A stretch of DNA of 22,910 bases from a virus (lineage: Duplodnaviria > Heunggongvirae > Uroviricota > Caudoviricetes): the IMG/VR virus record IMGVR_UViG_2713896903_000002. One strand, given 5' to 3'. The translations under genes and the position numbers were made by a program. This document shows, one piece after another, positions 5,687-22,611 of the stretch. The number at the start of each line of letters is the position of its first letter. Within the stretch, counting starts at the first letter, position 1. The notes beneath the pieces were generated by a model. The model saw only the letters and a program-made list of their open reading frames with translations. It made no database searches and was not told the origin of the DNA.

Positions 5687-6466
5687 ATGAGCGAGAAATT
5701 GAAGATCGTCTATCGCCCGTTACAAGAACTGTCTCCGTATGCACACAATGCCAGGACACACAGCCCTGAGCAGGTAACGCAACTGGTAGAAAGCATTAAG
5801 CAATTTGGCTGGACTAATCCGGTGCTGATTGATGAAAAGGGCGAAGTTATTGCGGGTCACGGTCGCGTTATGGCGGCTGAAGTGCTCAAAATGGATTTCG
5901 TTCCGGTCATCGTTCTGTCTGGTCTGACGGATGATCAGAAAAAGGCGTACCGTCTGGCAGATAATCGCCTGCCGATGAATGCTGGCTGGGATGAAGATCT
6001 GTTACGGATGGAGCTGTCGGACCTAATTAATGCTGATTTTGATGTCTCCCTGACAGGCTTCAGCCCGATAGAAATTGATGAACTGTTGACGGATATTTTG
6101 CCTGGTACAGGAAATGAGGAGGAGCCGTATACGACGAAAATTGATACGCCTGTTTATGAGCCGTCAGGCGATAAACCGGATATCTGTGAACTGTACGACG
6201 ATACGAAAACTCAGGAGCTGATCAGCCGGATACGTTCGGCGTCCCTTAATCCTGATATTGAGAAATTCCTCCTGTGCGCGGCAGAACGTCACACGGTGTT
6301 TAATTTCAGCAGAATCGCGGACTATTACGCTCACGCCCCCGCTGAAATTCAGAGCCTTTTTGAGGAATCGGCTCTGGTGATCATTGATTATCAGCAGGCA
6401 ATTGAAAATGGGTTTGTCAGGATGACGCAGCGCATGGTGGAGATCATGCATGGCGAGGAGGAGTAA
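5687..6466 (+). CDS. ParB N-terminal-domain (ParB/sulfiredoxin-like nuclease domain) protein
   Basis: N-terminal LSPYAHNARTHSPEQV..L..SI..FGWTNPVLID..GEVIAGHGRVMAA pattern typical of ParB-N/ParBc domains; translationally coupled to the next gene. Confidence 0.65.
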   Translation: MSEKLKIVYRPLQELSPYAHNARTHSPEQVTQLVESIKQFGWTNPVLIDEKGEVIAGHGRVMAAEVLKMDFVPVIVLSGLTDDQKKAYRLADNRLPMNAGWDEDLLRMELSDLINADFDVSLTGFSPIEIDELLTDILPGTGNEEEPYTTKIDTPVYEPSGDKPDICELYDDTKTQELISRIRSASLNPDIEKFLLCAAERHTVFNFSRIADYYAHAPAEIQSLFEESALVIIDYQQAIENGFVRMTQRMVEIMHGEEE

Positions 6467-6467
6467 T

Positions 6468-7400
6468 ATGCGTGATGATTTTTGCGCCTTTATTCTGACT
6501 CACGGGCGACCGGACAAAGTTCTGACTTACCGGACGTTGCGTCGTGCTGGCTATACCGGGAAAATTTTTATCGTTGTTGATGATGAAGATAAAACCCGGC
6601 ATCAGTACGTAGCAGAATTTGGTGAACAGGTGCTGGTGTTTTCCAAAGCCGATATCGCCAGTCGTTTTGACGAAGCCGACAACTTTGGCGATCGACGTTC
6701 AATCTTTTATGCCAGGAATGCCTGTTTGGGCCTGGCAAAAAAGGTTGGGTGTAAATACTACATCCAGCTTGATGACGACTATCACGAGTTTCAGTTTCGG
6801 GTGGATCGCAACTATGACCAGGCTTATTTTCCGATAAGGAAACTGGACTCGATCCTTTCTGAAATGCTGGCGTATTACGAATCAATTCCTGCGCTTTCCA
6901 TCGCTATGGCGCAGGGGGGGGATTTTCTTGGTGATAATGGTGGTCATGCTGCATGGGTGAAACGCAAAGCAATGAACAGCTTTATTTGTTCTGTTGACCG
7001 ACCATTCTCATTTATGGGGCGTATTAACGAGGATGTGAATACATACACGAATCTCGGTCGTCGTGGTGAATTGTTTTTGACGATTGGCGCTGTCCAGTTA
7101 GGGCAGAAGCAAACGCAGAAAAACAGCGGCGGAATGACCGAACTGTATCTGGATTCCGGCACCTACGTTAAAAGTTTTTACTCCGTCATGTATGCGCCGT
7201 CGTGCGTAAAAATCTCACTGATGGGCGCCAGCCATAAACGCATTCACCATCAGGTCACCTGGAACAACGCTGCAGTAAAAATCCTTCACGAAAAATACAG
7301 GAAGAAGACACCCTGCATATCAATGGGGGTGATAAATGATTCCGTATTCGAAAGTCGAGTCTCTGGCAGCGTGCCGGATGACTGCACAACAAATCGCTGA
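6468..7400 (+). CDS. hypothetical protein with DxD-type acidic motifs (possible GT-A-like nucleotide-sugar transferase fold); function unverified
   Basis: GAGGAGGAG RBS before ATG 6468; motifs IFIVVDDEDKT and YIQLDDDYHEF; no methyltransferase or PAPS-reductase motifs seen. Confidence 0.5.
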   Translation: MRDDFCAFILTHGRPDKVLTYRTLRRAGYTGKIFIVVDDEDKTRHQYVAEFGEQVLVFSKADIASRFDEADNFGDRRSIFYARNACLGLAKKVGCKYYIQLDDDYHEFQFRVDRNYDQAYFPIRKLDSILSEMLAYYESIPALSIAMAQGGDFLGDNGGHAAWVKRKAMNSFICSVDRPFSFMGRINEDVNTYTNLGRRGELFLTIGAVQLGQKQTQKNSGGMTELYLDSGTYVKSFYSVMYAPSCVKISLMGASHKRIHHQVTWNNAAVKILHEKYRKKTPCISMGVINDSVFESRVSGSVPDDCTTNR

Positions 7401-7590: not shown

Positions 7591-8685
7591 ATGAGCAGAC
7601 CGGACTGGGGGGCGTTGCAGCAGGAATATATTGCTGAATACACCCGCTCCGGTGTATCTCCGGTGGCGTGGTGTGAAGCAAAGGGACTGAATTACGCAAC
7701 AGCCCGTCGTTACATCAAGAAACCTCCGAAAAATGCGCAGACAGAAGTGCGCAAAACTGCGCAAAAAAGTGCGCGAAAAAAAACTGCGCAGACTGCGCAA
7801 AAGCAAAACGGAAAATCTCAGAAAAAAAAGACTGTATCCGATGCACTCCTGATTGAGGAGGACACGGAAGAAATTTCGTTCTGCCCCGATGAATTCGGTA
7901 TTTCTGACCAGCAGGCAAAATTCGCCATGTTGGTTGCTCAGGGGAAAAAGCCGACAGAGGCATACCGCCTGGCTGGTTACGAGGGGCAAGGTGCGACAGC
8001 AAACAGCAATGCCAGTCGTATGCTTAGAAATGCCAGGGTTTTTCGTGCCATCAGCTACTTTCGCAATCATTACCAGAAACGCTATACCGCAGACCTGGAT
8101 TTACTGGTGAGTCAGTTGATGGCCATCGTGCAGGCTGATCCCAATCAGCTTGCGCAATTTCGCCGTGTTAACTGTCGCTATTGCTGGGGGGAGAATCACC
8201 TCTATCAGTGGCGCGATATAGCAGAATTTGACAGGGCTGCCGCGCAGGCATCCAAAGATGGTAAACCAGAACCTGAATATGGTGGCCTCGGTTTCGTTGA
8301 TAGCGCCATACCAAATCCAGACTGTCCGAAATGCGGTGGAGAAGGTACAGGTCAGCTTTATATGGCTGATACCACTTTGCTTGATGGAAATGCGCGGCAA
8401 TTGTATGCAGGAGCAAAGCTCGGAAAATTCGGCGTTGAGATCCTGCTGGAGAATAAAGCTGCCGCCCGGCGTGAATTATTGCGTTTGCTTTCCGCTGGCG
8501 GGGCATTATGTGCAGATAAGCGACTACAGGAACTGGAAATTGAACGGCGCAGAATGGAAAACCAGAAACTGCGCAAAGAGATCGAAACGGTGGAGGGTAA
8601 TGAACATCCCCAGCCTGTGGCGATCAATATTAATGTGGTTGATGCCAGAGTGAGGAGTGATGAAGATGATCTCTCCGACGCTTAA
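7591..8685 (+). CDS. terminase small subunit (Terminase_2-type core with N-terminal HTH, K/A/Q-rich linker and C-terminal Cys4 zinc-ribbon-like segment)
   Basis: KFAMLVAQGKKPTEAYRLAGYEG...NASRMLRNARV matches the small-terminase signature as recalled; CxxC...CxxC (NCRYCWGEN / PDCPKCGGEG); sits directly upstream of TerL. Confidence 0.75.
   Translation: MSRPDWGALQQEYIAEYTRSGVSPVAWCEAKGLNYATARRYIKKPPKNAQTEVRKTAQKSARKKTAQTAQKQNGKSQKKKTVSDALLIEEDTEEISFCPDEFGISDQQAKFAMLVAQGKKPTEAYRLAGYEGQGATANSNASRMLRNARVFRAISYFRNHYQKRYTADLDLLVSQLMAIVQADPNQLAQFRRVNCRYCWGENHLYQWRDIAEFDRAAAQASKDGKPEPEYGGLGFVDSAIPNPDCPKCGGEGTGQLYMADTTLLDGNARQLYAGAKLGKFGVEILLENKAAARRELLRLLSAGGALCADKRLQELEIERRRMENQKLRKEIETVEGNEHPQPVAININVVDARVRSDEDDLSDA
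7734..7799. repeat. six copies of palindromic hexamer TGCGCA (one TGCGCG) spaced 9-15 nt apart inside terS; candidate pac / TerS-binding array
   Basis: Direct reading: TGCGCR at 7734, 7748, 7758, 7770, 7785, 7794, mostly followed by A-runs. Confidence 0.45.
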
Positions 8686-10975
8686 TGTGCCTCAGGCGCG
8701 ATTTCTTTCTATGCCTCATAAATTTAAAGCCTATGTTGCTGGTTTTGGTTGCCTGAGGGGAAGTACGCCTGTGGTTACAGAGAATGGGATTCTACCCATT
8801 CAGGAAATAACTCGACCAATGCGCGTTTTATCTTGGTCGGATGAGAATAATCGATTTGAGCTTTCGCTAAGTGGTGGTGCGTACCCAAAAGGTGTGGCGA
8901 ATCTATACCGAGTAGTGACGCAGCGAGGAGAATTTGTAGCAAGCGGACATCACCGCGTTTTTTGCGCTGACGGTAGCTATCGATCTGTGGATAGTCTGGA
9001 CGAATCGGTGAAGGTATTTGCATCTTCGCAAAACCTTCTTCTGACCAGTTTGGCCGCCGTCCCGAAATCGTTGCACGCAGGTGATCCACGTTTGAATCAA
9101 AAACTCGCAGATTACTTGGGGTGTTATGCAGATGAAGCCCGTCGATATGGTCAACAACTTCTGATGGCAGCAGATAACGCCCCAGCTTCTTTTCAGCGAT
9201 CAAACGATGTTCAAACATCATGCCTGTTCTGCGCATATATGGATGGTCAGCAGGCGCTGGAACAACGGCATATTCATCCAGATCAACAATTCGACCACCA
9301 CGAAAGCTGGGGTTCAACTCACCCTTTCTGGCGCCACGGGAGAGCCGGTTGGTGTTGTGAATTCGGAGAATATTTTGAACGTGCTTTTCTGTGCAACCAA
9401 CTTCCGCCGCGATCTCTGCCGACGTACAGTGACCATCAGCAAGAGCGAGGATTCTGTCCTTCGCACTTTCTCGAGGGGCAGGCTTCTGGCGTTGTTTCAG
9501 CGTTAACCCATAACGAGATATGCAACGATAAACATGACTACGGTCACAACCTGCCAGAGAAGCAACTTCTGAAACGGTACGTTCTGGATGTGCTAAATCA
9601 CAAATTAAATGGTCAAGAGGCGTCAAAACCAAACGCCTTAATCGAAACCTGCAACATATTGAGTGTAACACTGTTGCAGGAGGCCGAGCCATATTATGAC
9701 CTCCAGGTATTGGATAATAACTGCTACGTAACTGCTGATGGGACGATTCATCACAATAGCGGTAAAACATGGGTTGGGTGTGGTGGCATATGTAAGGGGA
9801 TTTGGGAGCATCCGGGTATCAATCAGGGATATTTCGCGCCTACATATCCACAAATTCGCGATATTTTTTATCCTACAGTTGAAGAAGTTGCTGCCGACTG
9901 GGGGCTAAATGTAAAAATTAACGAGGGAAATAAAGAAGTTCATTTTTATTACGGACGTCAGTATCGGGGAACCACTATCTGCAGATCGATGGAGAAGCCA
10001 CAAACGATCGTCGGTTTCAAAATTGGTAATGCGCTGGTGGATGAACTGGACATTTTGCCGAAGGAAAAAGCCAGAACAGCGTGGCGCAAGATAATTGCGC
10101 GTATGCGTTATAAGGTTGATGGACTTCGTAACGGTATTGACGTTACAACCACGCCGGAAGGATTCAAATTTGTCTACGAACAGTTTGTTAAAGCCGTACG
10201 TGAAAAAACAGAGCTGGCCTCACTGTATGGCCTGGTACAGGCATCTACTTTCGATAATGAAAAGAATTTGCCAGCAGATTACATTCCCTCGCTCCTTGAG
10301 TCATATCCTCCAGAGCTGATTAAAGCCTATCTTCGGGGACAGTTTACTAACCTGACAAGTGGTACTGTTTACCATCAGTTTGACCGAAAACTGAATAATT
10401 GCGAAGAAGAGGAACAGCCAGGTGAGCCGATATATATCGGGATGGATTTTAACGTCGGAAAAATGGCTGGAGTCGTTCATGTGTTACGTTTTGGGCTTCC
10501 ATGCGCAGTAACTGAAATCATTAACGCTTACGATACACCAGATATGATCCGTATTATTAAAGAGCGCTTCTGGTTATATGACGGGAATGATTATCGGAAA
10601 GTAAGGGAAATTTATATTTATCCTGATGCATCCGGGGATTCCAGAAAATCAAATAACGCAAGTGCGACGGATATTGCTCAGCTTAAACAGGCTGGTTTTA
10701 ACGTTGTTGTAAACAGTTCGAACCCGCCAGTAAAAGATCGCGTTAACTCAATGAATGCAATGTTCTGCAATGCCAATGGTGAGCGTCGCTATAAAGTTAA
10801 TGTGAAGCGTTGTCCGGTATATGCCGAATCTCTGGAGCAACAGGTCTGGGATGATAAGGGTGAGCCTGATAAAAAATCTGGTAACGATCACCCGAATGAT
10901 GCCGGAGGTTATTTTATTGTTAAGCAATTCCCTATTGTCAAACCGACCGGAAGAGTTACATCACTTCGGATTTAA
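8657..10975 (+). CDS. terminase large subunit, intein-containing precursor (probable start ATG 8666; spliced product about 433 aa)
   Basis: Walker A split as ...YVAGFG | intein | SGKTW...; Walker B-like ALVDELD; nuclease-domain motifs IYIGMDFN and DHPNDAGGY; continuous 772-codon frame. Confidence 0.85.
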   Translation: MMKMISPTLNVPQARFLSMPHKFKAYVAGFGCLRGSTPVVTENGILPIQEITRPMRVLSWSDENNRFELSLSGGAYPKGVANLYRVVTQRGEFVASGHHRVFCADGSYRSVDSLDESVKVFASSQNLLLTSLAAVPKSLHAGDPRLNQKLADYLGCYADEARRYGQQLLMAADNAPASFQRSNDVQTSCLFCAYMDGQQALEQRHIHPDQQFDHHESWGSTHPFWRHGRAGWCCEFGEYFERAFLCNQLPPRSLPTYSDHQQERGFCPSHFLEGQASGVVSALTHNEICNDKHDYGHNLPEKQLLKRYVLDVLNHKLNGQEASKPNALIETCNILSVTLLQEAEPYYDLQVLDNNCYVTADGTIHHNSGKTWVGCGGICKGIWEHPGINQGYFAPTYPQIRDIFYPTVEEVAADWGLNVKINEGNKEVHFYYGRQYRGTTICRSMEKPQTIVGFKIGNALVDELDILPKEKARTAWRKIIARMRYKVDGLRNGIDVTTTPEGFKFVYEQFVKAVREKTELASLYGLVQASTFDNEKNLPADYIPSLLESYPPELIKAYLRGQFTNLTSGTVYHQFDRKLNNCEEEEQPGEPIYIGMDFNVGKMAGVVHVLRFGLPCAVTEIINAYDTPDMIRIIKERFWLYDGNDYRKVREIYIYPDASGDSRKSNNASATDIAQLKQAGFNVVVNSSNPPVKDRVNSMNAMFCNANGERRYKVNVKRCPVYAESLEQQVWDDKGEPDKKSGNDHPNDAGGYFIVKQFPIVKPTGRVTSLRI
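8750..9757 (+). other. intein (336 codons) inserted in the TerL P-loop
   Basis: Block A CLRGSTPVVTENG starting with Cys at 8750; block B-like GEFVASGHHRVF; blocks F/G EPYYDLQVLDNNCYVTADGTIHHN ending in HN followed by Ser +1 (9758); extein halves rejoin to AGFGSGKT. Confidence 0.8.
8775..9692 (-). CDS. HNH endonuclease with N-terminal HTH-like modules, encoded antisense within the intein
   Basis: Minus-strand ORF shows HNH core FEHRLIAEKKLGRYLLPSEVVDHIDGLHLHNTPSNLRVFDSNVDHL (antisense of about 9075-9215); GGAGG + 7-nt spacer before ATG at 9690-9692; ORF is open from 9770 to 8775, so the true ends are uncertain. Confidence 0.55.
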   Translation of the reverse strand: MARPPATVLHSICCRFRLRRLVLTPLDHLICDLAHPERTVSEVASLAGCDRSHVYRCISRYGLTLKQRQKPAPRESAKDRILALADGHCTSAEIAAEVGCTEKHVQNILRIHNTNRLSRGARKGELNPSFRGGRIVDLDEYAVVPAPADHPYMRRTGMMFEHRLIAEKKLGRYLLPSEVVDHIDGLHLHNTPSNLRVFDSNVDHLRATISGRRPNWSEEGFAKMQIPSPIRPDYPQIDSYRQRKKRGDVRLLQILLAASLLGIDSPHLLGTHHHLAKAQIDYSHPTKIKRALVELFPEWVESHSL

Positions 10976-17432: not shown

Positions 17433-18395
17433 GTGAGTTCAGGTGCAAAGGTTATCTCGGCATTTATCCGGGAGACAATTGCAGGCACCACGCCAGCTAG
17501 TGGTGACTGGAGTTTATTAAAGCGCACAAGCTGGGGAGTAAAACCAACCCAGAATAAAGGCGAAAATAATGAGATCGGTGGTTCTCGTATGGCTCAGGGG
17601 GCGACGCCTGGCACTGTGGATGTCGGCGGTGATGTTGGTACCAAATTTCGCTGGGGCCAACATGATGATTTCCTTGCATCCTGTTTTGGCGCGGAATGGT
17701 CAGGAGATTCTCTGACTATGGGGAATGAGCGAATAACATTTTCTCTGGCAACATATGCGTCAGATGTGGGAATTGCCTCTATCGTCAGGGGGGCACAGGT
17801 TGGATCGTGGAAAATGCAGATTCCTAACGACGGTGATATTACTGCGACAGTCACTTTTGCCGGGCTGGACTGGGAATCAAAGGCCGATGATACAAATTTT
17901 ATCAAAGGCGAGCCTGTAGATAGTGCAGGAAAGTTACGTTATTCGTTTAAGGAAGTTTCAGCAGTAAGTCTGAATGGTGTTGCCGGAGGTAACGGTTTTT
18001 GTATCGACAGCTTTGATATCCAGTTCGATAACAAACTTCAGACCCAGCGTTGTGTCGGGACTGGTTCTCCTTATGCAGGAGCAAATATTCCGACTACTTT
18101 TACACCGTCCGGTACGGTGACGCTTTCATGGTCTAAAGCCGCGTGGGAAATCTGGAGTAAAACATTAACTGGAGAAACAGTTCCGTTCAGCTTCACGCTT
18201 TCGAATGGAGAGGGGGCATATACTTTCAGTTTCCCGAAGGTTCAGATATCAGGTGAATGGCCTGACGGCGGTAATACCGATATTATCCAGGTCCAGTTGA
18301 GTATTACCGCTGCTGACGAAGCGCCAACTATCACCAGAAAAAAAGCTTCCCCGGCTGCAGTGATTGCAAAAGCCAGTGCTGAGTCGATTAGTTGA
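17433..18395 (+). CDS. major tail (tube) protein, GTG start
   Basis: AGGAGG RBS before GTG 17433; 320 aa; position before the G/GT chaperone pair; C-terminal beta-rich Ig-like-looking segment. Confidence 0.6.
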   Translation: MSSGAKVISAFIRETIAGTTPASGDWSLLKRTSWGVKPTQNKGENNEIGGSRMAQGATPGTVDVGGDVGTKFRWGQHDDFLASCFGAEWSGDSLTMGNERITFSLATYASDVGIASIVRGAQVGSWKMQIPNDGDITATVTFAGLDWESKADDTNFIKGEPVDSAGKLRYSFKEVSAVSLNGVAGGNGFCIDSFDIQFDNKLQTQRCVGTGSPYAGANIPTTFTPSGTVTLSWSKAAWEIWSKTLTGETVPFSFTLSNGEGAYTFSFPKVQISGEWPDGGNTDIIQVQLSITAADEAPTITRKKASPAAVIAKASAESIS

Positions 18396-18455
18396 TTTTC
18401 CGTTATTCCCCCTGTGGTATTGCGCTACAGGGTGGTGTTTTGAATGAGGTTATAG

Positions 18456-19007
18456 ATGTTTATTCTTGAACAGAAAACTATCATCGGTGGAGAACGCTGG
18501 TTTACGCCAATGAAGGACTTAGAACCTATTGCTGGGTTACAACTGTTGGTGGCAAGCAGTGATAATGATCAGTATCGCTCCCGTAATGCATTAATCCGTC
18601 GCCACATTGAGAAAATGGATGCCAGTTTGCATGTCGGAACGAAGGCGTTTGATATTGCAAAGGTCGTCGAGGTGGACTCTGTTGATGATTTACTCATTGA
18701 TAACGCCGCTCGTTATCTGCTGAAAGACTGGAAAGGGGTTGGAGAGCTGGTAGATGGTGTTGAGGTCGCGCTGGAATATACACCAGAAAGAGGTGCTGCG
18801 CTGCTCAAGCAGAATCCAGAGTTGTACTGGCAAATCCTTACAGAAGCCGCCAGAATCGCCCAGGGAAAAGAGCAGCAAAAGCAGGATACGATAAAAAAGC
18901 CATTGCCGCCCAGCGGTGGATATCGGAGTTCGGGGGAGAAAAGGGTGAAAAGGCAAGGTGGAAACGAGAAAAGCTCAGGTTGCCGCCGCTCCCGGAGCCA
19001 GAAATAG
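18456..19007 (+). CDS. tail assembly chaperone (lambda G-like), zero-frame product
   Basis: 183-aa ORF before the tape measure; contains slippery A_AAA_AAG at 18893-18899. Confidence 0.55.
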   Translation: MFILEQKTIIGGERWFTPMKDLEPIAGLQLLVASSDNDQYRSRNALIRRHIEKMDASLHVGTKAFDIAKVVEVDSVDDLLIDNAARYLLKDWKGVGELVDGVEVALEYTPERGAALLKQNPELYWQILTEAARIAQGKEQQKQDTIKKPLPPSGGYRSSGEKRVKRQGGNEKSSGCRRSRSQK

Positions 19008-19213
19008 ACCCGGTTATTAGGGAATTGTTGTACGCCTATTCGGTGATATCCCGTGCCCGGCGTTATGCTGGAATGGCTGGGGTGCCTTTGCCTTTATCTC
19101 TGTCAGAGATAAATGAATATTTAGCCACTCATCCGGTATTGATTGAGCGCGATGAATTTGAAGCAGTGATCTTTGCACTGGATGACCAGTATTTTCAGGA
19201 GCAGTGTGTGTAG
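18456..19213 (+). CDS. tail assembly chaperone fusion (lambda GT-like) made by programmed -1 frameshift near 18893-18899
   Basis: The -1 frame is open from the slip site to 19213 and encodes a sensible extension (…AIAAQRWISEF…LPEPEIDPVIRELLYAY…); conserved G/GT logic upstream of the tape measure gene. Confidence 0.5.
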
Positions 19214-19336
19214 TTGTTAATTACGTACACTCTGTTACAGAGATGTGATAGTGTCTTTAATTAAATCGATGATGCTCCTGGAGAAAAGCATTGCGTGGCC
19301 TCGTAATCGCTATATCTACTATTATGTCGCCTGAAA

Positions 19337-19357
19337 CCCACTTCGGTGGGTTTTTTT
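19337..19357 (+). terminator. intrinsic terminator in the spacer before the tape measure gene
   Basis: cccac-ttcg-gtggg hairpin followed by T7; CAGGAG RBS and ATG 19378 follow. Confidence 0.45.
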
Positions 19358-19377
19358 GTTGTCAGGAGTTTTAATAA

Positions 19378-22300
19378 ATGGCAGAGCAGACCTCACGTCT
19401 TGCAATAATTATTGATAGCTCTGGAGCGAAAAATAATGCTGATAATCTGACCTCATCATTAGTCAAAATGACTCAGGCCGGGGAAACTGCTGCAAATAGC
19501 GCAGGGAAAGTGACTAAGGCAACAGAAGACGAGAAGAACGCGCTCGCAAAATTAAAAGCAGCTATTGATCCAGTTGGTGCCGCAATTGATACTGTCGGTC
19601 GACGCTATTCTGAATTAAAGAAATATTTCGATAAAGGGCTTATTGATAAAGAAGAATATGAATTTCTTGCCCGTAAACTTAATGAAACCACAGAGGAATT
19701 GAGCGGGGTTGCGCAAGCGCAGAGAGAAGCCGAGAAGGCCGGAAAACTTGCTGCCGCCCAGCAGGAAGCGCAGGCTCAGGCCTTTCAAAGAATGCTGGAC
19801 AAGATCGACCCTCTGGCTGCGGCGCTAAGAAATCTTGATCAACAGCAGGATGAACTTAATGCTGCACTTTTTTCCGGGAAAATAAATGGCTCTCAGTTTG
19901 ATAATTACAGCCGAAAAATACAGGAAACGCGGCGAGAGCTAACAGGAGAGGCTCAGGCAGAACGAGAAGCAGCAAAAGCGCATGATGAACAAGTTGCTGC
20001 TTTGCAACGTCTGATTGCTCAACTCGATCCTGTTGGAACAGCTTTTAACCGCCTGACAGAGCAGCAAAAGCAACTCAGCGAAGCAAAAGCCAAGGGGATG
20101 CTTTCTCCTGAAATGTATGAGGAGCTTTCAGGAAAACTCCATGCTATGCGGAGTGAGCTTGAGGTTACTCAATCGCAACTCAGCAAAACCGGAATGTCAG
20201 CAAAACAAACGGCTTTTGCTATGCGCATGTTGCCTGCACAAATGACGGATATTGTTGTTGGGTTGTCCACTGGTCAGTCGCCATTTATGGTGTTAATGCA
20301 GCAGGGCGGCCAGCTAAAAGATATGTTCGGTGGGATTGGCCCGGCGATCAAAGGTGTTGGTTCTTATGTGCTGGGATTAATTAATCCTTTTACCCTGGCC
20401 GCAGCAGCCGTTGGCGCCTTGGGGCTAGCTTACTATAAAGGTTCTCAGGAGCAGGACGAATTTAATAAATCTCTTATTCTTACCGGAAATCAGTTGGGGA
20501 CAACCAGCGGGCAATTAGCCGATATAGCTCAACGTGCCGGGGATGCTGCTGATTCGACAACTGGCGCTGCGGCGGCAGTATTAAACCAGCTTGTGCGTTC
20601 GGGAAAGGTCGCGAGCAGTTCGCTGGAGCAGGTGACGACAGCGATAGTAAAAACGAGCGAATTAACTGGAATATCGACCGATCAACTGGTTAATAATTTC
20701 AATGAAATTGCAAAGGATCCTGTCAGTGCCATATCAAAACTTAATGATCAGTACCATTTTCTGACACTGGCGACTTATAACCAGATTAAGGCGCTACAGG
20801 ATGAAGGGAACCAGCAGGAGGCCGCCCGCATTGCGACAGAAGCATACTCATCCTCAATGATCCAGCGCACCAACCAGATTAAAGAAAATCTTGGTTATCT
20901 TGAGACTGCATGGAAAGCTGTCGCAGACTCCGCAAAATGGGCATGGGATTCCATGCTGGATATTGGCCGTGAGGCCTCCCTTGATCAAAAAATCTCAGAT
21001 GTTCTCCGTCAAATTGATGAAATAGAAAAAAATACCCGACCCGGAGTTTTCGGGTTAGGTGGCATTGGAGATGGCGGAGCTCAAAATAAAAGGCTGGCAC
21101 GATTAAAGCAGCAATTGGGCGTACTTCAAGCAGAAAAAATTGCTCAGGACGTACTAAATTCATCAATAAACGATTACAACAAGCGACAACAGGAAGGAAT
21201 TGAACTCAGACAGAGAGCAGATGCCTTTTCAAAACAATATCAGACCCGGGAGCAGCAGAGAGCTAGTGAACTTGCAAAACTGGAAAAACTAAAGAGTCAG
21301 TATTCAAAGGAAGAATATAATAATCTTATCGCTCAAATAAATGAGCGTTATAAAGATCCAAAGCAACCAAAGGCGAAAGGTTATTCGGATGATGCTGCCC
21401 AACGAATGATTGATCATCTGAATCAACAGAATGCGTTACTAAGTTCACAAACTGAATTAACCGTTAAATTAAGTTCCTCTGAACAGGAACTGGTTAAGTG
21501 GCGTCAGCAGATTGCCGACCTGGAGTCACGACCGTCATCGAAATTAACCAAGGATCAGAAATCGCTTCTCTTACACCGGGAAGAAATAACCGCGTTGATG
21601 GAGAAAAATGTTGCGATTGAAAAAAATAACAGGCTAATCAAGGAATTCGCCGAAATAGCTGCATGGCGTGATTCATTGCAGGCTTCGATTGATAATCGTC
21701 AACAGGGGTATGATATTCAGATTGCTGGTTATGGGGTTGGCGATAAAAATCAGCAACGCCAGCAGGAATTACTGCGGATTGAACGTGAATATAACAATCA
21801 GCGTCTGCAACTTGAACGTGACTATGCAGATAAATCCCGTGGGATGTCAAATCATGTTTTTCAGGAGAAAATGCAGGCTCTGAATGATGCTCTGGAACGA
21901 GAAAAAGAAATTGTCAGACAGAAAAACGAGCAGCTCGATATTCAGGCAGGAGACTGGGTTAGTGGTGCCTCCCAGGGATTCAATAACTGGTTGGATAACA
22001 CTAAGGATATCAGCGGGCAGATAAAATCAACCACGACTCAGATGTTTGATGGGATGACAGATGCGCTTGGTGATTTTGTCACGACAGGCAAGGCAAATTT
22101 TCGTTCTTTCGCTACCTCCGTGATTTCAGATCTTAGCAGAATAGCATTAAAGGCCTCAATTACCGGGATTTTCGACAGCATTAGCAACAGTTCTTCTGGG
22201 GGGATTTTAGGAACTATCGGAAGTGCTGTTAGTAAATTTATTCCTAATGCAAAGGGCGGTGTTTATGAGTCTCCATCATTGAGTACATATTCAAACGGTA

Positions 22301-22611
22301 TTTATGATTCCCCGCAATTTTTTGCTTTTGCAAAAGGTGCTGGTGTTTTTGGTGAGGCTGGACCGGAAGCTATTATGCCATTAACACGAACTTCCGATGG
22401 TTCTCTTGGTGTCAGGGCGATTAATAATAAAGGCGGTAATGGAGGCGGAGACATTAATTACTCTCCTGTATATCAAATTACTATCAAAAATGACGGACAG
22501 AATGGAGAGATTGGCCCTCAGGCAATTAGAACACTTATGGGAATGGTTGATCAGCGAGTGCAGGGCACTTTGTTAAATATGCGACGTGATGGAGGAATGT
22601 TAAGTGGCTGA
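19378..22611 (+). CDS. H: tail tape measure protein (lambda H-like)
   Basis: 1077 aa; [39 protein letters not shown] closely resembles lambda H as recalled; long coiled-coil regions. Confidence 0.9.

Follow-up and report, generated by a model that had tools for sequence, protein, structure and literature searches.

Frameshifting between G and T is widely conserved in long-tailed phages and is by now textbook material. A second familiar case of −1 frameshifting is dnaX, where an SD-like element lies 10 nt upstream of the site, a strong stem-loop lies downstream and the shift amounts to about 50%. For phage lambda, gpG and gpGT were described by Levin, Hendrix and Casjens (1993) and by Xu, Hendrix and Duda (2004, 2013, 2014), as these works are cited in PMC5009743, which gives a ratio of about 30:1. 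Reporter assays on two tail chaperone genes from prophages, which resemble the HK97 chaperone, gave 6–7% frameshifting (PMC3711429).

Here these systems are compared with a locus in a stretch of 22,910 nt of DNA from a virus of the Caudoviricetes (IMG/VR record IMGVR_UViG_2713896903_000002), which was analysed as a whole and is referred to below as the window. Judging from comparative sequence evidence, this locus very probably uses a programmed −1 frameshift of the lambda G/GT type at the slippery heptamer A_AAA_AAG (18893–18899), which would fuse a tail assembly chaperone, G, to a C-terminal extension, T. The anatomy of the locus, its family assignment and the conservation of both the site and the −1 reading frame are direct observations. 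The window contains a complete siphovirus morphogenesis module, in which small and large terminase, portal, head morphogenesis, scaffold, major head, adaptor and tail terminator genes are followed by those for the tail tube protein, the G/T pair and a tape measure protein of 1077 aa. The large terminase ORF of this module (8657–10975, 772 aa) opens with a GTG and overlaps the small terminase gene, and its PHROG terminase matches reach only residues ~366–769; no match accounts for its N-terminal half, unless translation really begins at a later codon.

At the locus itself all features are on the plus strand. The tail tube (major tail) protein gene at 17433–18395 (Pfam Phage_tube_2, 1.3e-30; PHROG 290, 3.9e-111) precedes G at 18456–19007, the −1 frame ORF ends at 19213, and the tape measure gene follows at 19378–22611 (Pfam TMP_2, 7.6e-82; Tape_meas_lam_C, 7.8e-26; PHROG 24), i.e. 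an overlapping ORF pair lies between the tube and tape measure genes. Terminator-like hairpins with T-runs flank the pair, one between the tube gene and G (18410–18432) and the other (19333–19354, GAAACCCACTTCGGTGGGTTTTTTT) in the 164 nt that separate the T stop from the start of the tape measure gene. Close relatives in E. coli, Shigella and Salmonella retain the second of these, its loop being longer there, but it is absent in Citrobacter and Klebsiella. Both hairpins may serve transcription attenuation or mRNA stabilisation, and so set the ratios of tube, chaperone and tape measure proteins. Two minus-strand ORFs in the region (18690–18956 and 19017–19178) have no family matches and were treated as non-coding by-products.

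The zero-frame ORF G encodes a product of 183 aa and 20.6 kDa, which a PHROG profile search places in PHROG 313 (‘tail assembly chaperone’; E 2e-47, profile positions 21–165). The best structural match of the predicted G model is the HK97-type tail assembly chaperone (PDB 2ob9), and the G product falls within a tail assembly chaperone family or fold. The −1 frame is open from 18764 to a TAG stop at 19211–19213. When counted from the re-read base 18899 to this stop, the T segment (18899–19213) comprises 104 aa (AIAAQRW...QEQCV) and matches PHROG 1189 (E 1.2e-35) as well as positions 180–246 of the 258-position PHROG 313 profile, which bears out the proposal of an earlier sequence-only reading that the −1 frame continues to 19213 and encodes a sensible extension. 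In the copy of Pfam searched, no family was matched by G itself, and relatives of G carry the precomputed assignment PF27119. Against Pfam PF23812 (Phage_TAC_18) the T segment scores 21.3 bits (E 2.9e-4), under the gathering cutoff of 27 bits, and only four of 15 diverse T segments match this family at E ≤ 0.01. An NCBIfam scan of GT returned no family, and a PDB sequence search with GT as the query returned nothing meaningful.

The sequence from 18860 to 18899, ccaGGGAAAAgagcagcaaaagcaggatacgatAAAAAAG, contains two slippery heptamers, GGGAAAA at 18863–18869 and AAAAAAG at 18893–18899, and both are in the X_XXY_YYZ phase of the ORF 18456–19007 (CAG GGA AAA; ATA AAA AAG, 145... 147/148). For A_AAA_AAG, the position and the zero-frame phase given by the sequence-only reading are confirmed, and it is an in-phase slippery sequence within the overlap of the two frames. 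Taken alone, this heptamer is not beyond chance. There are 12 copies of AAAAAAG in the window where 8.1 are expected, and the genes of the window hold 37 in-frame X_XXY_YYZ heptamers in 6649 codons, including two other in-frame A_AAA_AAG. One of these two lies at 6737–6743 in a glucosyltransferase-like gene (6450–7400, PHROG 842), where the −1 frame closes after three codons, and the other at 7824–7830 in the small terminase gene (7591–8685), where it closes after eight; an in-phase G_GGA_AAG also occurs at 20601–20607 in the tape measure gene, with the −1 frame closing after 28 codons. These three heptamers are probably incidental. When the codons of G were shuffled, some X_XXA_AAG arose in 18% of the shuffles, and in only 1.2% when a given stretch of 12 codons was considered. 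The signal that exceeds chance is the positional conservation of the site across 108 related loci.

These 108 phage and prophage loci, from about 15 genera, comprise ten phages for which conceptual fusions were made and 98 loci from scans of species-representative genomes and IMG/VR; the scans were seeded with a four-sequence G alignment, an alignment of G from six genera being too diverged for use as a seed. The sequence-only reading had made its case depend on conservation of the heptamer in related phages, and in the column of 18893–18899 a canonical heptamer, A_AAA_AAG or G_GGA_AAG, is indeed found in 104 of the 108 loci (one of the GGG-type sites being G_GGG_AAG). Among the 98 scanned loci the counts are 90 for A_AAA_AAG, seven for G_GGA_AAG and one for G_GGG_AAG. 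The remaining four of the 108 have the near-slippery G_GAA_AAG (three, from Pseudomonas phages) or C_GCA_AAG with a direct TAA (one, from Erwinia). Orthologous G_GGA_AAG sites occur in Raoultella, Serratia, Pantoea, Tatumella and Acinetobacter. Between GTA AAA AAG and GTG GGA AAG the encoded residue changes from Lys to Gly and the canonical heptamer is kept. The Val, Ile or Leu codon in front follows suit at its silent third base, which without exception is A where AAA comes next and G where GGA comes next. This exchange and the matching silent base show selection for slipperiness, not for the peptide.

The two-frame layout is shared as widely as the site. A tblastn search with the conceptual fusion as the query found 40 phage records, and every phage hit covering both parts consisted of two pieces in different frames. 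Conceptual fusions that step back one base at the in-frame A_AAG were assembled from ten phages, belonging to six genera and a bat-faeces virome (Escherichia, Salmonella, Klebsiella, Erwinia, Pseudomonas and Acinetobacter, with Flyfo from the virome); all ten are free of internal stops and align colinearly through the junction, e.g. ...TIKK|AIAAQRW, ...TVKK|AIEAQKW, ...TLEK|AIARFQW and ...ILGK|VMELYKY. Site and layout are thus conserved in diverged relatives, and sequencing error or pseudogene decay, which were also considered, are excluded by the two-frame layout common to the 108 loci. In the commonest relatives G and the −1 frame overlap by 37 nt, and no more than 30 nt (10 codons) of open −1 frame precede the end of the heptamer, which leaves A_AAA_AAG as the sole possible site there. 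Gene order, the PHROG 313 match and the conservation of the heptamer column all concur with the proposal, made in the sequence-only reading, of a G/GT device upstream of the tape measure gene.

Some individual loci depart from this pattern. In Tatumella (L024, L026 and L027) G_GGA_AAG is followed directly by TAA, and so is the non-canonical C_GCA_AAG of the Erwinia phage Gungnir39 (L005, 1086–1095), which suggests that in some lineages a P-site A_AAG slip is aided by a slow stop codon in the A-site. A natural in-frame G–T fusion is found in an E. coli protein of 240 aa (P0001), in which sequence ahead of the heptamer has been deleted, so that ...ILAEA runs directly into GYDKKAIAAQ... of the −1 frame; its prophage would be able to produce GT alone, without G, and is presumably defective.

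The frame in use after the site was examined over the 28 codons past the slip in 17 diverged lineages, as mean pairwise amino acid identity. This identity is 0.55 in the −1 frame versus 0.30 in each of the other two frames, and the variation after the slip is concentrated at third codon positions of the −1 frame. The shifted-frame ORF has a conserved N-terminal part without a start codon of its own: the first NTG of the −1 frame lies 14–58 codons downstream in 17 of 18 lineages, at positions that are not conserved. In the window it lies 27 codons after the site (TTG at 18980), and the peptide encoded by the 27 codons from the heptamer to this TTG, AIAAQRWISEFGGEKGEKARWKREKL, is conserved in the −1 frame across genera. 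These data weigh against the explanation in which no recoding occurs, T being made from an internal start (TTG 18980 or an ATG near 19070) and the overlap being an instance of compact gene packing. A 77-aa ORF with a TTG start does exist in the window (18980–19213), and a short ORF of its own is annotated there in several public records, but conservation of AIAAQRWISEFGGEKGEKARWKREKL upstream of the TTG, together with start positions that are not conserved, is not explicable by independent initiation of T. Relatives, moreover, have no start codon where the window has its TTG, an AGG directly abuts TTG 18980 with no spacer, and the slippery heptamer is held at one column despite the amino acid change, so that an independent T start is very unlikely. 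It is scarcely credible that the frame is changed by RNA polymerase adding one A to the mRNA on the A6 run, instead of by a ribosomal slip. There are six consecutive A at 18893–18898 and poly-A runs can support transcriptional slippage, but in the known cases such runs exceed 7 A (PMC3711429), and the G_GGA_AAG orthologues, which are classic ribosomal sites, have only three A, where no polymerase slippage is possible.

If ribosomal slippage is accepted, the upstream heptamer G_GGA_AAA (18863–18869) might be the main site or an additional one, giving a GT isoform with the junction ...IAQGKRAAKAGYDKKAIAAQ..., and this we regard as improbable. The heptamer is in phase, its product in the window would reach 19213 by way of the −1 frame open from 18764, and GGGAAAA is also present in 17 of the 108 relatives. 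In 63 of the 108, however, the equivalent is GGGTAAA, in which GGT AAA puts a TAA stop in the −1 frame; GGGCAAA is found in 11, and the remainder are various; GGC and GGG are among the Gly codons at this position. With this GGN variation in a conserved Gly codon, 18863–18869 has the pattern of a neutral synonymous position. The conserved T alignment also leaves out the −1 frame peptide that lies between the heptamers. In E. coli, X_XXA_AAA is much less shift-prone than X_XXA_AAG (PMC5009743), the latter being more prone owing to the poorer pairing of AAG with the only tRNA-Lys. The second candidate put forward by the sequence-only reading is therefore present and in phase, but does not hold up as a conserved site, GGT AAA being the form in most of the relatives. 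The pattern of conservation identifies 18893–18899 as the predicted functional site and 18863–18869 as incidental.

A downstream stimulatory stem-loop, which the sequence-only reading had proposed to look for, was sought by single-sequence folding, alignment folding and pair counting, and none was found. The minimum free energy of the downstream RNA (18900–18990, 91 nt) is −23.5 kcal/mol versus a shuffle mean of −26.2 kcal/mol (z +0.9), and RNAalifold applied to 16 diverged sequences gave a consensus of −1.6 kcal/mol with no compensatory pairs. The local hairpin of the window is paired in 54.5% of cells across relatives, the same as in shuffles, and an Rfam scan of 18300–19500 had no match. 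Upstream, the only SD-like motif is AGGA at 18883–18886, 6 nt from the heptamer, which is missing from the Serratia, Pectobacterium, Siccibacter and Flyfo orthologues. Such a position is nearer than the spacing that stimulates −1 shifts; the spacing rule for SD-like elements, about 10–14 nt upstream of the heptamer, reportedly goes back to work by Larsen et al. from 1994. The description of the site as ‘dnaX-type’ accordingly suits the heptamer, but not its surroundings, which lack both a downstream stem-loop and a properly spaced, conserved SD-like element.

From these observations we infer that the slip occurs, how efficient it may be and what the roles of G and GT would be. Most ribosomes on G (18456–19007) would read through to give the G chaperone, and a small fraction would slip back one base at A_AAA_AAG, with the P-site tRNA-Lys re-pairing from AAA to AAA and the A-site tRNA-Lys from AAG to AAA. 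The slipped ribosomes would follow the −1 frame to 19213 and produce a predicted GT fusion of 252 aa and 28.7 kDa, join(18456..18899, 18899..19213), with its junction at ...QDTIKK|AIAAQRW.... The predicted junction peptide is ...DTIKKAIAAQRW..., and QQKQDTIKKAIAAQRWISE would be diagnostic of a slip at A_AAA_AAG. On the model of lambda gpG/gpGT, the tape measure protein would be coated by G and by the G portion of GT, and the T part would recruit the tail tube protein, so that the rate of slipping would fix the G:GT ratio. Acting by itself, with no RNA stimulator, the heptamer should cause slipping at a rate of a few percent, which is also the efficiency that would be expected from lambda and the HK97-like prophage chaperone genes.

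The lineage of the window differs from most relatives in its zero frame, which runs past the second heptamer for 35 sense codons to 19007 (PLPPSGGYRSSGEKRVKRQGGNEKSSGCRRSRSQK); this extension is Gly/Ser/Arg-rich, has a pI of 11.4 and gave no family matches. Of the 98 scanned loci, 70 have the stop of G a single codon past the heptamer (CCA TAG), and in others it comes after 0, 7 or 25 codons. TTG replaces this TAG in the window, in seven IMG/VR contigs, in E. coli MEI003 and in a diverged Salmonella protein, and G runs about 35 codons further in carriers of TTG than in carriers of TAG. The change from TAG to TTG is silent in the T frame (ATA to ATT). The last 34 aa of G are consequently lineage-specific and basic, and with the extension G has a pI of 9.1 instead of 5.3. 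The sequence-only reading was correct that the zero frame continues into low-complexity sequence, but this is not part of the device, as most relatives have CCA TAG; on this comparison the tail is best read as a by-product of out-of-frame reading of the T coding sequence in a rare lineage. Given the lost stop and the basic 34-aa tail, the zero-frame G of the window lineage may be less than fully functional. In the same lineage a GGT to GGA change created the second slippery heptamer and removed the stop in the −1 frame. It is conceivable, if rather doubtful, that through these two silent changes the window lineage now makes GT in two isoforms, alongside a G whose 34-aa tail is strongly basic; were this true, it would imply altered chaperone stoichiometry or tape measure binding, of a kind undescribed for G/GT systems.

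Of 5426 complete E. coli genomes, about 1050 carry prophages with 92–93% identity to the G/T region, and there G is named YdaY; identity to the window of at least 95% is found in only three of 1074 matching E. coli genomes. The window-type G of E. coli MEI003 (L110, NZ_CP071263.1, 651–1007; 99.1% identical) is annotated by PGAP as an incomplete pseudogene, ‘missing C-terminus’, and T is without annotation there; this mis-annotation arises because of the lost stop codon and the unrecognised frameshift. None of 14 public records inspected has an annotated slippage join, and no paper was found on the YdaY/PHROG 313/PF27119 family with its Rac-type tail module, including on a frameshift in ydaY. 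The G/GT frameshift itself is known; what is new here is an unannotated member, the YdaY/PHROG 313/PF27119 family. Current annotation either treats T as a short hypothetical protein of its own or misses it, and for G about a thousand E. coli genomes and all phage records inspected give the name YdaY or ‘hypothetical’. A join(18456..18899,18899..19213) with the ribosomal_slippage qualifier would correct the annotation of a widespread enterobacterial prophage family, including the K-12 Rac remnant, and the conserved G/GT rule would extend to one more family. A clean example of selection on slipperiness over the encoded amino acid would also be provided by the way in which A_AAA_AAG and G_GGA_AAG replace each other at a single codon column.

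Among the closest known systems is the Rac remnant of E. coli K-12, whose ydaY is an N-terminally truncated orthologue of G, 93.6% identical. In K-12 MG1655 (L109, about 840–852) A_AAA_AAG CCA TAG ends ydaY and the T frame is kept, both lying upstream of the truncated tape measure gene ynaA; Rac is, however, a defective remnant, whereas the window carries the full morphogenesis module. With the HK97-type chaperone (PDB 2ob9) and the HK97-like prophage cluster the locus would share, by analogy, the same role and the same recoding device. The comparison with E. coli dnaX gamma/tau is more divided. The A_AAA_AAG heptamer is identical and the same tRNA-Lys slippage logic would apply, but neither a stem-loop nor an SD-like element about 10–14 nt upstream is found in the window, and frameshifting in dnaX truncates the protein, whereas in the window it would extend it. 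The pair is unlike lambda gpG/gpGT in its A_AAA_AAG, where lambda has G_GGA_AAG (a heptamer that some orthologues of the window site do carry), in that its G and T have no detectable match to the lambda-type G/T Pfam families, and in a zero frame that runs 35 codons past the site, that of lambda ending close to it. It is like lambda in having an overlapping ORF pair, with the downstream ORF in the −1 frame, between the major tail and tape measure genes, in an X_XXA_AAG near the 3′ end of G, in a fusion that is expected to be the minor product, and in a heptamer found here without an RNA stimulator. By analogy, then, the device resembles the lambda G/GT system, heptamer-driven and of low efficiency, and not the dnaX cassette.
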